From IMG/VR virus record IMGVR_UViG_2534681604_000004: DNA of 36,312 nt; one strand, given 5' to 3'. The stretch is from a virus. Taxonomy: Duplodnaviria > Heunggongvirae > Uroviricota > Caudoviricetes. How positions within the stretch are numbered: position 1 is the first letter of the stretch; each line of letters starts with the position of its first letter. Positions 1 through 4,560 of this stretch are shown in pieces. The translations under genes were made by a program, and so were the position numbers. Below the pieces are notes generated by a model. It saw only the letters and a program-made list of their open reading frames with translations, was not told the origin of the DNA and did not search any database.

Positions 1-424
1 GCCGGGCAGTGACGTCATCGTCTGCGCGGAAATGGACGAACAGTGGGGATACGTCGGGGCTAAATCGCGCCAGCGCTGGCTGTTTTACGCGTATGACAGG
101 CTCCGGAAGACGGTTGTTGCGCACGTATTCGGTGAACGCACTATGGCGACGCTGGGGCGTCTTATGAGCCTGCTGTCACCCTTTGACGTGGTGATATGAA
201 TGACGGATGGCTGGCCGCTGTATGAATCCCGCCTGAAGGGAAAGCTGCACGTAATCAGCAAGCGATATACGCAGCGAATTGAGCGGCATAACCTGAATCT
301 GAGGCAGCACCTGGCACGGCTGGGACGGAAGTCGCTGTCGTTCTCAAAATCGGTGGAGCTGCATGACAAAGTCATCGGGCATTATCTGAACATAAAACAC
401 TATCAATAAGTTGGAGTCATTACC
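1..424 (+). mobile_element. IS1-family insertion sequence, partial copy (3' portion; terminal inverted repeat ends at 424)
   Basis: Sequence matches recalled IS1 3' half; encodes InsB C-terminal region and ends with GTTGGAGTCATTACC, the reverse complement of the IS1 terminal repeat GGTAATGACTCCAAC. Confidence 0.92.
200..409 (+). CDS. insB: IS1 InsB transposase C-terminal fragment ([36 protein letters not shown]...IKHYQ)
   Basis: Track ORF; recognisable InsB C-terminus; an in-frame TGA at 197-199 precedes the Met where the recalled reference has TGG (Trp). Confidence 0.8.
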
Positions 425-631
425 CAGGCATGTGTACGATATGCCCAACCCTGTTTTTCAGGGGAGGCGCAACGTTATGCGGGGTTATGAACTCCTGGAT
501 GCGTAGCCTCCAGACAGAAAAAACCCTCGCCACAACGTTGCATGGAGGCAACCAGCGAGGGCATTCCTTATGTCTGAACAACAAGAGGATAGCCGCAAGC
601 AGTTGCTGTTGCAAGTGTGCGGAGCTTCGTA

Positions 632-748
632 ATGACTCTTCAAAAAGCTTGCAAGTGGGTTGTGACCAACATCATTGTTCCTGTCATCATCGGAGCTTCA
701 AGTTCTGTGTTGGCATCAGTGATTGCCTCACTTCTCCACATTGCATAA
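632..748 (+). CDS. candidate small hydrophobic peptide (38 aa, single predicted TM helix), TAATG-coupled to a 20-aa upstream ORF at 570-632
   Basis: Own translation: MTLQKACKWVVTNIIVPVIIGASSSVLASVIASLLHIA; upstream mini-ORF has GAGGG 8 nt before its ATG; a hairpin plus T-run follows at 803-836. Confidence 0.25.
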   Translation: MTLQKACKWVVTNIIVPVIIGASSSVLASVIASLLHIA

Positions 749-802
749 CAACATTGAAGGGCGTTAGTTCGCAGTGTAACAGCAGCGCGTTGCGCCCGAA
801 CA

Positions 803-836
803 GGCCACAGGGTAAAACCTGTGGCCTTTTTCGTTT
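803..836 (+). terminator. rho-independent terminator-like hairpin (GGCCACAGG / CCTGTGGCC, then TTTTCGTTTT)
   Basis: 9-bp perfect stem, 6-nt loop, T-rich tail read directly. Confidence 0.55.
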
Positions 837-880
837 TAGCCAGCCACAAATCCACATTGAAAAACGCCTTATACAAAAAA

Positions 881-906
881 ACCTGCCAGCTAACTGGCAG
901 GTTTCT
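881..906. terminator. hairpin ACCTGCCAG / CTGGCAGGT flanked by an A-run (5') and TTCT (3'); possible bidirectional terminator
   Basis: 9-bp perfect stem with 4-nt loop; A7 run upstream gives a T-run on the minus strand. Confidence 0.4.
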
Positions 907-946
907 GAGCAGATCGACCAACCCGATCTGGATCGGACTGGAAAAA

Positions 947-963
947 TTTGCTCTAATAAATTT
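947..963 (+). promoter_or_regulatory. C1-repressor operator-like site upstream of kilA (TTTGCTCTAATAAATTT)
   Basis: 16/17 match to recalled P1 C1 operator consensus ATTGCTCTAATAAATTT; sits about 70 bp upstream of the kilA start. Confidence 0.6.
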
Positions 964-1032
964 CGTTTTCTAAGTGCAAAGAATCACCATTTCGAGCTGG
1001 TGATTGAAGGTTGATGCAAATTTGGAGAAAAA

Positions 1033-1833
1033 ATGCAACAAACATTCTATGCGGATATGAATATATCAAACCTTCATCAAAATGTCGATCCTTCAACCAC
1101 TCTGCCTGTTATTTGTGGTGTTGAAATTACGACCGACCGCGCTGGCCGTTACAACCTTAATGCTCTACACAGAGCGAGCGGACTCGGTGCCCATAAAGCG
1201 CCAGCTCAATGGCTAAGAACGCTGTCAGCCAAACAGCTCATCGAAGAGCTTGAAAAAGAAACTATGCAGAATTGCATAGTTTCGTTCGAAGGCCGTGGCG
1301 GCGGCACTTTTGCCCATGAATTGCTCGCTGTGGAGTACGCAGGCTGGATTTCTCCCGCGTTTCGGCTGAAGGTAAACCAGACATTTATCGACTATCGAGC
1401 CGGAAGATTACAACCTGCTATTCCGCAGAGTCTCCCTGAAGCTCTCCGTTTGGCTGCCGACCTGGCAGAGCAAAAGCAACGGCTGGAGCAAAAAATGCTG
1501 ATGGATGCACCTAAAGTCGAATTCGCCGAACGCGTTGCTACCGCCAGCGGGGTTCTAATCGGCAACTATGCCAAAGTGCTCGGCCTGGGCCAAAACTATC
1601 TCTTCACCTGGTTGCGTGATAACGGAATTCTGATCACAACCGGTGAACGCAGGAACGTCCCCAAACAAGAATACATATCTCGTGGGTATTTCACCCTTAA
1701 AGAAACCGTGATCGATACAAGCAACGGAAGCAGGATTTCTTTCACGACTCGTATAACCGGCAAAGGTCAGCAGTGGCTAATGAAGCGATTGCTTGATGCT
1801 GGTGTGCTGGTACCTGTCGCGGCTACGCGCTAA
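1033..1833 (+). CDS. kilA: KilA-like phage protein (KilA-N / antirepressor-type domain), 266 aa
   Basis: Track ORF with GGAGA RBS; position and length fit recalled P1 kilA ahead of repL; domain call is by recall, not search. Confidence 0.65.
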   Translation: MQQTFYADMNISNLHQNVDPSTTLPVICGVEITTDRAGRYNLNALHRASGLGAHKAPAQWLRTLSAKQLIEELEKETMQNCIVSFEGRGGGTFAHELLAVEYAGWISPAFRLKVNQTFIDYRAGRLQPAIPQSLPEALRLAADLAEQKQRLEQKMLMDAPKVEFAERVATASGVLIGNYAKVLGLGQNYLFTWLRDNGILITTGERRNVPKQEYISRGYFTLKETVIDTSNGSRISFTTRITGKGQQWLMKRLLDAGVLVPVAATR

Positions 1834-3004: not shown

Positions 3005-3127
3005 TACAATCGCTGCGGGTGCTTGAGGCTATCTGCTTCAGGCATTACCCGACAAGCAGATAGAAGAAAGCCCCAGATAACATTACGCGTCCTGCAAGAC
3101 GCTTAACATTAATCTGAGGCCATATCT

Positions 3128-3334
3128 ATGCTTAGCATACGTAGATTAGCCTCTTACCGACCAAAAGGTCAAGGAGAAGCAGGCTATGAAGCAGCAAAAA
3201 GCGATGTTAATCGCTCTGATCGTCATCTGTTTAACCGTCATTGTGACGGCATTGGTAACGAGGAAAGACCTCTGCGAGGTACGAATCCGAACCGGCCAGA
3301 CGGAGGTCACTGTCTTCACAGCCTACGAATCTGA
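3128..3334 (+). CDS. mok: mok-like overlapping reading frame of a hok/sok-type locus
   Basis: Track ORF that starts upstream of and overlaps the hok frame, as mok does in hok/sok. Confidence 0.45.
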   Translation: MLSIRRLASYRPKGQGEAGYEAAKSDVNRSDRHLFNRHCDGIGNEERPLRGTNPNRPDGGHCLHSLRI

Positions 3335-3341
3335 AAGGTAA
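3186..3341 (+). CDS. hok: Hok/Gef-family type I toxin, 51 aa
   Basis: Own translation MKQQKAMLIALIVICLTVIVTALVTRKDLCEVRIRTGQTEVTVFTAYESER, close to recalled Gef/HokC; GC hairpin GGCGGGGAGAGATCCCCGCC in the 3' UTR (3349-3368) in the position of a fold-back element. Confidence 0.85.
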   Translation: MKQQKAMLIALIVICLTVIVTALVTRKDLCEVRIRTGQTEVTVFTAYESER

Positions 3342-3457: not shown

Positions 3458-3967
3458 TTAATCCCACTCAATCCAGTTGTAGACGATACGAAGTGACGGG
3501 CGCACAGCAGCAGTCACATCTTCGGTACTAAAGTCGATTGCATCACTGTAGATTTTGCAGTCCAACATTTCAATTGTTGTAGCAGCTTTTGTCACAGCGT
3601 TAACCCCAGAAGATTTGGATTCAGGGGTCGCAGCCATCGTGATATCAACATAGTCCTTCGCCGCAATGCGATCTTTAATGAACTGAAGAATATCGCCTTC
3701 GATAGTCTCCACGCACTGGACCTGGATTTCCCCAGAGTTTCGAATTGGTCCGTGCTGGTTGAACTTCACACCATTCGGACCATAGTCCTCCACATCCTCG
3801 CGAGTCATTTCAGGGATTTGCGACGTGCGAACCAGTACGTTGATATCTTCATAGCCTGCAAAAGTGAGCTGGAATTCAGAAGATACCAGTCGTTCGCCTT
3901 TGGCCGCGTTGGCAGTATAGCGGCCCTTAATAAATTTACGGTTTCCCTTAGTGTTATTGTGCCCCAT
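3458..3967 (-). CDS. phage virion protein, possibly tail-tube-like, 169 aa
   Basis: Track ORF in a tightly packed minus-strand structural operon; functional call is weak inference. Confidence 0.45.
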   Translation of the reverse strand: MGHNNTKGNRKFIKGRYTANAAKGERLVSSEFQLTFAGYEDINVLVRTSQIPEMTREDVEDYGPNGVKFNQHGPIRNSGEIQVQCVETIEGDILQFIKDRIAAKDYVDITMAATPESKSSGVNAVTKAATTIEMLDCKIYSDAIDFSTEDVTAAVRPSLRIVYNWIEWD

Positions 3968-3978
3968 ATAAAATCCTT

Positions 3979-4560
3979 TTACTGGAACGCCCGAACAATA
4001 TCGGAGCTGTTATATATCGAAGAACCGGTCAACTGGAGGTTGACGGTGTTTTTCAGGAAATGCCCATTGCTGTCCCTGGGCGCATCGAGATCGAAACTTA
4101 TGTCCTGGATAGCGACATCAATGATGTTGATCCGGCGACCAATGTTTAGCGTCACACGCTCCGGGATTCGACCACCAATACTGGCATCTTTAAGTTCCGG
4201 GCTAATCATCGCTGACAATGCGGCGATAGCTCCTGAAACCTCCGTGAATGGGTCAAACAAAGCGATGAAAGTTACTGGCAGCGTGAAAGTCGGCGGTGTT
4301 CCCCCTTCCCAAACCATTAAGCTGTTCCAACGAGCAACAGACGTTGTTTCAGTACCAACCTGCGCAAAACCACTGAAGGCACCAGCAACAGAACCCATGG
4401 ACATACCAGTAAAAGGTGCTTCCCAATTCTGGGCCATGTTCATTGCCGCTCCCTGGCTGATATATCCGGTAACCTGGTACTGAGAGTTCGTTAAAGTAAC
4501 TTTCAGATATGGCGATACACCGTCAGCCTGACTGTAAACTCCATAAGCTATAGGAGCCAT
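3979..4560 (-). CDS. phage structural protein, hypothetical, 193 aa
   Basis: Track ORF; 11-nt gap to the next gene in the same operon. Confidence 0.45.
   Translation of the reverse strand: MAPIAYGVYSQADGVSPYLKVTLTNSQYQVTGYISQGAAMNMAQNWEAPFTGMSMGSVAGAFSGFAQVGTETTSVARWNSLMVWEGGTPPTFTLPVTFIALFDPFTEVSGAIAALSAMISPELKDASIGGRIPERVTLNIGRRINIIDVAIQDISFDLDAPRDSNGHFLKNTVNLQLTGSSIYNSSDIVRAFQ

Follow-up and report, generated by a model that had tools for sequence, protein, structure and literature searches.

What is the DNA that separates an IS1 element from kilA in the viral record IMGVR_UViG_2534681604_000004 (Caudoviricetes; 36,312 nucleotides, hereafter the window)? The preliminary description of this stretch (positions 425-1032) reported a 20-aa open reading frame (ORF) with a GAGGG ribosome-binding site, joined through TAATG to a 38-aa hydrophobic ORF and followed by two hairpins and the kilA operator, and likened it to type I toxin loci or, alternatively, to the scarred remainder of an immunity region cut by IS1. 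Both ORFs were recovered, at 570-632 and 632-748, with an overlap at 630-634, and the hydrophobic core of the longer product spans residues 14-32. In all, 46 ORFs with 20 aa or more lie wholly or partly within the first 2.5 kb of the window; ORFs alone are not above chance here, and their significance therefore rests on comparison with other sequences. Such comparison indicates that positions 425-874 are most likely a divergent, plasmid-borne type I toxin-antitoxin cassette of the LDR (ldr/rdl) type.

The relationship to the LDR family is seen at the nucleotide level. The ldrD/rdlD and ldrA-C loci of Escherichia coli K-12 were brought in after a weak Rfam match to rdlD, and an nhmmer profile of the K-12 ldrA-D mRNAs matches positions 447-841 with an E value of 2e-16 (55 bits, profile positions 40-420). 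The same profile also matches a homologue of 73% identity, which retains the peptide ORF, on a 4.46-kb ColE1-type plasmid of Pantoea agglomerans (E = 4e-14) and the metagenome variant L036 (E = 2.3e-24), the best row being L037 (2e-25); it gives no match in P1. An exhaustive phmmer search with the 38-aa peptide returned one further variant, P0002, which is 50% identical and lies on metagenomic contigs beside a PriCT_2/DUF5906 primase, a resolvase and IS1; the cassette that encodes it is the one scored above as L036 and L037. Compared to the K-12 LDRs, the locus is colinear through the 5' untranslated region (UTR), rdl region, rdl promoter, toxin ATG, 3' UTR and terminator. The shared blocks follow one another as a 5' hairpin, GAGGCGCAA(C/T)GTT..GCGGGG, the hairpin AGAAAAAACCC(T/C)CGC, AATAGCCGC, the toxin ATGA, TTGCGCCCG(A/G)A and the terminator. 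Together with the leader architecture described below, the profile match and the colinear blocks give the earlier likeness to type I toxin loci a specific form, that of an ldrX-ldr/rdl homologue.

Comparison with P1 and its relatives defines the extent of the cassette. In a megablast search against phages, 875-1032 alone matches (P1, P7, SJ46 and relatives, 96-97%), so that P1 homology begins only at 875, and positions 425-874 have zero matches among 50,697 phage records, even at blastn sensitivity. Relative to P1, the extra DNA substitutes 16 bp at the extreme end of ant and ends precisely at the A/T-run of a P1 hairpin. An intact icd-ant operon stands upstream of the cassette in Escherichia albertii p06-3542, with kilA downstream. 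The same 608 bp also follow the ant stop codon in plasmids where icd is intact and ant encodes 348 aa, so that 425-874 is no 3' remnant of a disrupted gene. Examination of the ant-kilA junction among P1 relatives, proposed earlier as a check, thus revealed an insert that is absent from P1 and P7. Judged by these comparisons, 425-874 is a self-contained cassette of ~0.45-0.5 kb, an insertion that follows the end of ant and precedes the terminator in front of kilA (Table 1).

The IS1 copy on its left belongs to an IS1-esterase-IS1 composite that stands where c4-icd-ant would be, an arrangement of the pEC17CM13_2 lineage. As the composite replaces c4-icd-ant, the present element is a P1-like plasmid without the immI antirepressor system. 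The E. coli plasmid pEC17CM13_2 is 100% identical over 440-874, a region left unannotated in RefSeq, which annotates IS1 at the place of 1-424. The IS1 copies (1-424, and L035 57-3072) are labelled there as pseudogenes and have an internal stop, and the cargo gene of the composite is annotated as 'esterase-like activity of phytase'.

Table 1. Features of the window, with coordinates on the analysed strand (SD, Shine-Dalgarno sequence; MFE, minimum free energy).
Feature	Position	Strand	Details
IS1 copy, 3' part	1-424	+	end of terminal inverted repeat = 424, sequence ...GTTGGAGTCATTACC
-10 element of toxin-mRNA promoter, TACGAT	435-440	+	by-eye comparison with upstream sequences of L001, L036 and L007
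Predicted ldr-like toxin mRNA, ~390 nt	447-837	+	5' end placed by homology
5'-terminal hairpin CCCTG-TTTTT-CAGGG	449-463	+	-8.3 kcal/mol
5' closing segment GGCGCAACGT	466-475	+	pairs with 787-796 (MFE fold; consensus helix 2, invariant)
Predicted Rdl-like antisense RNA, ~62 nt	518-579	-	stem-loop 524-562, U6 tail 518-523
Leader ORF (ldrX-like), 20 codons	570-632	+	SD GAGGG 557-561, 8 nt before ATG; stop overlaps toxin ATG
Predicted antisense promoter	586-614	-	TTGCAA (614-609), 17 nt, TATCCT (591-586), 6 nt to G579; by eye
Hydrophobic peptide ORF, 38 aa, MTLQKACKWVVTNIIVPVIIGASSSVLASVIASLLHIA	632-748	+	own SD GGAG 621-624
3' closing segment	787-796	+	pairs with 466-475
Rho-independent terminator of toxin mRNA (hairpin and T-run)	802-837	+	-22.3 kcal/mol, z = -5.5
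Cassette right boundary	874/875		comparison with P1
P1-homologous ant-kilA intergenic region	875-1032	+	GATC sites, promoter P53 (PkilA), C1 operator ~947-963; mapped from P1 annotation
Second hairpin	881-906, T7 run 880-874	-	-22.4 kcal/mol, z = -5.25
kilA	1033-1833	+	
PaskilA (P53as) promoter, TCGACA-17-TATATT	1060-1088	-	promoter scan; coincides with P1 annotation; inside kilA
Canonical hok/sok locus	3017-3341		Rfam sok 111.7 bits at 3017-3191; Hok-like 51-aa ORF 3186-3341; mok-like ORF 3128-3334
tRNA-Ser (tga) and tRNA-Met (cat)	21311-21397 and 22733-22808		

The 38-codon ORF bears the signature of a coding sequence. It is open in three variants that share ~50% amino acid identity, with a dN/dS of 0.29-0.36, and the identity among the three at the successive codon positions is 59/73/46%, the third being the most variable and the second the most conserved. 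Within the P1-like clade, the ORF has accumulated three synonymous changes and one conservative change, V10I. The transmembrane helix of the Fst/Ldr superfamily holds a P/D/S/TxxxG motif (Weaver 2020), and a PxxxG motif is found at residues 17-21 of the window peptide (PVIIG), P0002 (PTIVG) and LdrD (PVIAG), the Pantoea counterpart being QIAIG. After a four-residue insertion, VLASVI of the cassette peptide corresponds to ILASMI of LdrD, as judged by eye and from the nucleotide alignment. It is the N-terminus of the cassette peptide that holds the tryptophan and the basic residues (K5, K8 and W9). The flanks of the peptide carry charges of +2 (N-terminal) and 0 (C-terminal), compared to -2 and +3 in LdrD, which under the positive-inside rule suggests a membrane orientation opposite to that of LdrD. 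An upstream GTG at 617 was considered as the toxin start and ruled out by an in-frame TAA directly before the ATG in variant L036. Pfam gave no Hok match for the 38-aa peptide, PHROGs returned nothing meaningful for the toxin peptides, and neither NCBIfam nor Pfam returned anything meaningful for the leader.

The leader is conserved in its start. In all homologues the start codon lies 7-8 nt past a G-rich Shine-Dalgarno sequence (SD), and it is ATG in the window and L036, GTG in Pantoea and TTG in K-12. In ldrA, ldrB and ldrC, moreover, a leader of 20 codons starts with TTG at the same mRNA position and frame offset, and its stop overlaps the ldr ATG (as ATGA, here TAATG). The toxin ATG falls at mRNA nt 184-187 in the window and the K-12 copies, and at 206 in Pantoea. 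Translational coupling of leader and toxin in the ldrX arrangement has been published as an unproven hypothesis (Wen & Fozo 2014; T1TAdb paper), and the leader of the cassette would presumably be coupled to its toxin in the same manner.

The predicted toxin mRNA is bounded by recognizable signals. E. albertii p06-3542 retains the native promoter TTGCCA-17-TACGAT, and TTGCC(A/T) hexamers were seen by eye in L036 and Pantoea; the promoter scan reported neither this site nor the antisense promoter site. As IS1 has replaced the -35 element in the window, the output of toxin mRNA is probably altered in this copy, in which the antisense gene is intact. The position of the 5'-terminal hairpin is shared by all homologues, with compensatory change in four of its six pairs (helix 1). 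At the 3' end, the first hairpin with its T-run, placed earlier at 803-836, is present within a base of that position as a Rho-independent terminator; none of 200 shuffled sequences folds as well, and the terminator is conserved in all homologues with two compensatory pairs (helix 13).

Between these ends, the mRNA is predicted to fold back on itself. In addition to the pairing of the two closing segments, the stretch at ~755-786 pairs with 602-640, which holds the SD and AUG of the toxin (helices 8 and 9). Folding predicts the 5'-3' closure for the window and for all four K-12 mRNAs (ldrA-D), and less strongly for Pantoea; homologues that were folded separately share the 5' hairpin, the GGCGC(AA)/(TT)GCGCC closure, the pairing of SD and AUG with the 3' UTR, and the terminator. 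These helices persist in an RNAalifold consensus of six sequences (window, L036, Pantoea, ldrD, ldrA and ldrB), in which 93% of cells are paired, compared to 39-49% after a shift of the partners by 1-3 columns. Pairs changed on both sides number 22 against 11.7 ± 2.1 in shuffles, none of 500 reaching 22, for a consensus tested on the same six sequences, of two clades, from which it was derived. Compensatory pairs are found at alignment columns 187/378, 189/376 and 217/357 (helices 2, 8 and 9). Overall, compensatory changes preserve the predicted mRNA fold, including the closure of the 5' end on the 3' end and the hidden start codon.

Opposite the 5' UTR, the minus strand carries a predicted antisense RNA gene. 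The preliminary description of the locus was right as to the ORFs and hairpins of the plus strand and overlooked this gene, with its hairpin and T6 run at 518-562. The 5' tail of the RNA, 16 nt long and single-stranded, is complementary to the ATG and SD of the leader, and the predicted fold resembles that of K-12 RdlD (-24.5 kcal/mol, z = -2.9). Its promoter has a K-12 LDR counterpart of the form TTGTAA-17-TATTCT-6-G, and the annotated 5' end of rdlD sits 6 nt after its -10; hexamers and spacing were read by eye from the alignments, and L036 and Pantoea look equivalent. Apart from rdlD, Rfam returned only noise (e.g. EF3314_EF3315 and snoRNAs). As a side observation, the 85.8-kb P1-like Salmonella plasmid NZ_CP077703 (also H76 and H77) retains no more of the cassette than a 62-nt piece that is 80% identical to 511-576 and lies downstream of ant and a RelE/ParE pair (L008 3001-3062); it could be an orphan antitoxin RNA, or only a terminator remnant.

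The cassette is rare and found on plasmids of several kinds. All 608 bp are carried by 17 P1-like plasmid records (E. albertii, E. coli and Salmonella), and four more are split at ~614; P1 and P7 do not have the cassette, a minority of P1-like plasmids carry it, and it occurs in 10 of 5,426 complete E. coli genomes. At the cassette slot of the L036 backbone (3732-4219), the E. coli plasmid pEC224_4 has exactly another segment of 1.18 kb (L041 5052-6234). This segment holds two overlapping ORFs of 112 and 211 aa, neither with a Pfam match, and may be another two-gene module in the same slot. Given this swap and the sharp boundaries in the P1-like plasmids, the cassette behaves as a discrete unit of ~0.45-0.5 kb on three unrelated plasmid backbones. 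Wider scans added little: with strict patterns from the peptide alignment, genome contigs yielded a Pantoea alvi contig alone, identical to the P. agglomerans plasmid; the closing-helix pattern gave 16 loci in metagenomes, of which 13 are chance matches and three near-identical P1-like copies; and viral contigs yielded near-identical P1-like copies only. Canonical LDR matches occur in 21 PLSDB records, several of them Mb-sized. The one opened, NZ_CP010135.1 (91.6 kb; L042 and L043), is evidently a chromosome fragment, as it holds kdsA, prfA and the Ldr gene next to lambda-like head genes; some of the canonical LDR matches among plasmid records are thus artefacts of mislabelling.

In the four split plasmids, an IS481-like element of 1,095 bp (L004 and L005, 3906-5000; 359-aa transposase) parts the toxin ORF, together with its SD, from the promoter, leader and rdl, with a target duplication AGTGTG that corresponds to window positions 614-619. 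An ORF that reads out of the end of this element is fused in frame to the toxin ORF, giving P0001, annotated as a partial hypothetical protein; it was the only return of a protein homologue search with a 43-aa, GTG-extended form of the peptide. The IS1 and IS481-like insertions both disturb the toxin side and spare the antisense gene, which would fit a harmful product, and two sites prove nothing.

Among known systems, the cassette most resembles Ldr/Rdl. Nucleotide homology extends along the entire mRNA of ~380-390 nt. They both have the same arrangement of promoter and transcription start site, a 5' hairpin, the closing helix GGCGCA/TGCGCC and a terminator, as well as an antisense gene (in the cassette a predicted one) opposite the 5' UTR and over the leader start with the same promoter geometry, a 20-codon leader overlapping the toxin ATG at nearly the same mRNA nucleotide, and PxxxG at residues 17-21. 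However, the cassette peptide has 37-38 aa, compared to 35 for Ldr, its helix being four residues longer; it ends in H-(I/L)-A, with neither the KRK/NRK tail nor a Trp behind the helix. In addition, the cassette is single-copy on plasmids and phage-plasmids, whereas Ldr genes are tandem chromosomal repeats of E. coli, Shigella and Salmonella. Similar to hok/sok (and pnd, srnB and flm), it is plasmid-borne, and it would have a leader ORF (mok in hok) coupled to the toxin, a short antisense RNA over the leader start and a stable mRNA locked by 5'-3' pairing (tac/fbi in hok). There is no sequence homology to hok/sok, the Rfam sok model (RF01794; gathering score 59) reaching 13.5 bits at 560-594; the 38-aa toxin lacks a periplasmic domain and the Hok Cys pattern, and its short leader abuts the toxin ORF instead of overlapping it. 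Fst/RNAII (par of pAD1) and its Gram-positive relatives share the single-helix PxxxG peptide and include plasmid-borne members with post-segregational killing, but these systems differ in a charged C-terminus, the lack of a leader ORF and an antisense RNA that overlaps the 3' end.

By homology with the published ldr/rdl systems and analogy with the hok/sok models, we propose how the cassette might work; transcription, differences in RNA stability, coupling, toxicity and biological role are all put forward on this footing. A sigma-70 promoter would direct synthesis of a ~390-nt mRNA (~447-837), the full-length form of which would be folded shut by pairing of 466-475 with 787-796 and of the SD and AUG (621-634) with the 3' UTR, and would thus be translationally inert. 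Once the mRNA is opened, ribosomes would load at the leader (570-632) and pass via TAATG to the 38-aa ORF, the product of which, a single-helix membrane peptide, would arrest or kill the cell. A constitutive antisense RNA of ~62 nt (579->518), perfectly complementary to the SD and start codon of the leader, would block leader translation and therefore toxin translation. Upon plasmid loss, the antisense RNA, being short-lived, would disappear before the stable mRNA, translation of which would then lead to post-segregational killing; a role in abortive infection or competition would be equally compatible.

Several observations weigh against a functional LDR-type assignment. The peptide lacks a Trp and any K/R/D/E after the helix, ending in ...ASLLHIA or ...LAHFHLA, while a conserved Trp followed by a charged cluster is the Fst/Ldr signature (Fozo 2010). 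The Pfam model PF13940 (Ldr_toxin; E <= 10) misses all three variants (window, Pantoea and P0002) and scores the LdrD control at 93.7 bits, NCBIfam finds nothing with the window and Pantoea peptides, and an hhalign comparison with LdrA, LdrB and LdrD aligns 16 columns at a weak probability of 11%. Positions 1-66 of the Rfam rdlD model match 518-579 on the minus strand at 21.1 bits (E = 0.12; gathering score 50), compared to 87 bits for the K-12 rdlD control, and the Pantoea copy gives no match to this model. By nucleotide homology the cassette is of the LDR lineage; it is not a plain member, as it escapes the curated peptide and small-RNA models and shows only one of two signatures of the peptide. 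The frame and length of the leader are not kept in Pantoea, L036 or ldrD, so the leader peptide sequence is not the conserved element. The shared origin and test set of the consensus fold has to be added here, as does the fact that every mechanistic step is carried over to this lineage from other systems. Moreover, chromosomal Ldr-RdlD showed no post-segregational killing (Coray 2017).

Beyond the main assignment, it is possible, though less likely than not, that the cassette represents the first recognised horizontally mobile Ldr/Rdl lineage. It would hop between unrelated backbones, namely P1-like phage-plasmids, a ColE1-type plasmid and a primase-type plasmid backbone, act as an addiction or anti-competitor module, unlike chromosomal ldr/rdl, and encode a toxin with a swapped charged end and probably the opposite membrane orientation. 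A disarmed relic is somewhat unlikely: it would be LDR-derived, with a toxin that is unexpressed in this copy as IS1 removed the -35, so that only the antisense RNA and the terminators act. In its favour are the loss of the native TTGCCA, the IS1 end falling 10 nt upstream of the -10, and a one-nucleotide deletion in a conserved G-run that forms one arm of a conserved 5'-UTR helix (GGGG at 481-484 in the window and pEC17CM13_2, compared to GGGGG in the other P1-like copies and Pantoea; the run reads GCGGGAG in L036 and GCGGGGG in K-12 ldrA, ldrB and ldrD, ldrC not sharing it). The IS481-like splits in four other plasmids would further suggest that inactivation is tolerated or even favoured. 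However, nothing is broken in the ORF, its leader, the two SDs or any of the helices, and copies that retain the native promoter are 98.2-99.8% identical to this region; the cassette is conserved, and the IS1 and IS481-like insertions are recent events on it. The IS1 end also supplies a TTGGAG at 411-416, with an 18-nt spacer to the -10, and read-through from IS1 is possible; the ends of IS1 can reportedly create hybrid promoters.

An improbable variant of the LDR assignment is that the RNA scaffold controls a non-toxic small membrane protein, such as a phage exclusion or lysis-timing modulator. Loss of the Trp and of the basic tail, which is required for toxicity in Lpt (Weaver 2020), would agree with it, as would the reversed charge bias relative to LdrD and the lack of a Pfam match. 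However, Fst of pAD1 is toxic without a Trp (Weaver 2020), the whole predicted translational lock (closure, hidden AUG, leader coupling and antisense) is kept, a tight control typical of toxic products, and the cassette is also found on ColE1-type and primase-type backbones, both without phage functions. Readings outside the LDR family fare far worse. That the segment is debris of the immI region or of the ant 3' end, left by an IS1 insertion or deletion, was suggested by IS1 abutting the region and by the missing c4-icd-ant of this plasmid lineage; it is refuted by the sequence comparisons, since the same sequence follows the stop codon of a complete ant in relatives, P1 and P7 have no homologue of 425-874, and the homology is to the E. 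coli LDRs and not to ant. Scarcely credible as well is a real gene on the minus strand (420-614, 64 aa; 640-921, 93 aa; or an annotated 132-aa hypothetical protein). PGAP annotates a hypothetical protein over the stretch in several records, but that ORF crosses the cassette/P1 boundary and reaches the kilA promoter, no gene is called here in many other records, the homologue search gave only the plus-strand IS-toxin fusion P0001, and the coding signature is in the plus-strand frame.

To the right of the LDR-type cassette, the remaining features are those of P1. The C1 operator upstream of kilA is present as described earlier, and so is the second hairpin, which had been grouped with the small ORFs and the first hairpin as one unit; their origins differ, as P1 homology starts at 875 and the second hairpin is P1 sequence. 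Mapping of the P1 annotation onto the window (P1 coordinate minus 48,863) places the annotated antisense transcription start site 49915 at 1052, from which an RNA running to the hairpin would be ~178 nt. A ~180-nt antisense RNA reportedly controls the P1 lytic replicon. The second hairpin is thus likely the terminator of the P1 kilA antisense RNA (PaskilA/P53as), native to P1 and outside the cassette; this RNA is adjacent to the small-ORF cassette and unrelated to it. On the plus strand, the hairpin (z = -4.85) is followed by a tail of only TTTCT and may serve as a weak end of the ant operon in P1. The canonical hok/sok locus of the window lies downstream of repL, ~2 kb past the cassette, so that type I loci of two different kinds flank the kilA-repL lytic replicon.

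Ldr/Rdl systems have been described as chromosome-only, confined to Enterobacteriaceae and not horizontally spread (Fozo 2010; Coray 2017), and reviews give no plasmid homologues for Ldr (Coray 2017; Fozo 2010; Weaver 2020); this chromosomal confinement has served as an argument for the low mobility of type I systems (Fozo 2010; Coray 2017). Our literature search found no published description of the present plasmid-borne lineage. An LDR-like cassette on three kinds of plasmid, missed by curated protein and RNA models and unannotated in RefSeq, would qualify the chromosome-only picture. It would also mean that the small-ORF region ahead of kilA is, in some P1-like plasmids, a probable functional unit, the toxin side of which is hit by IS elements at two sites. 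The two lineages offer a natural comparison of the properties that post-segregational killing requires of a type I module and of the toxin features that matter, such as the Trp with the basic tail and the membrane orientation, while the conserved start and variable frame of the leader amount to a natural experiment for the ldrX coupling model. If the lineage is indeed mobile, the chromosomal LDR repeats of E. coli would descend from, or exchange with, a mobile pool.

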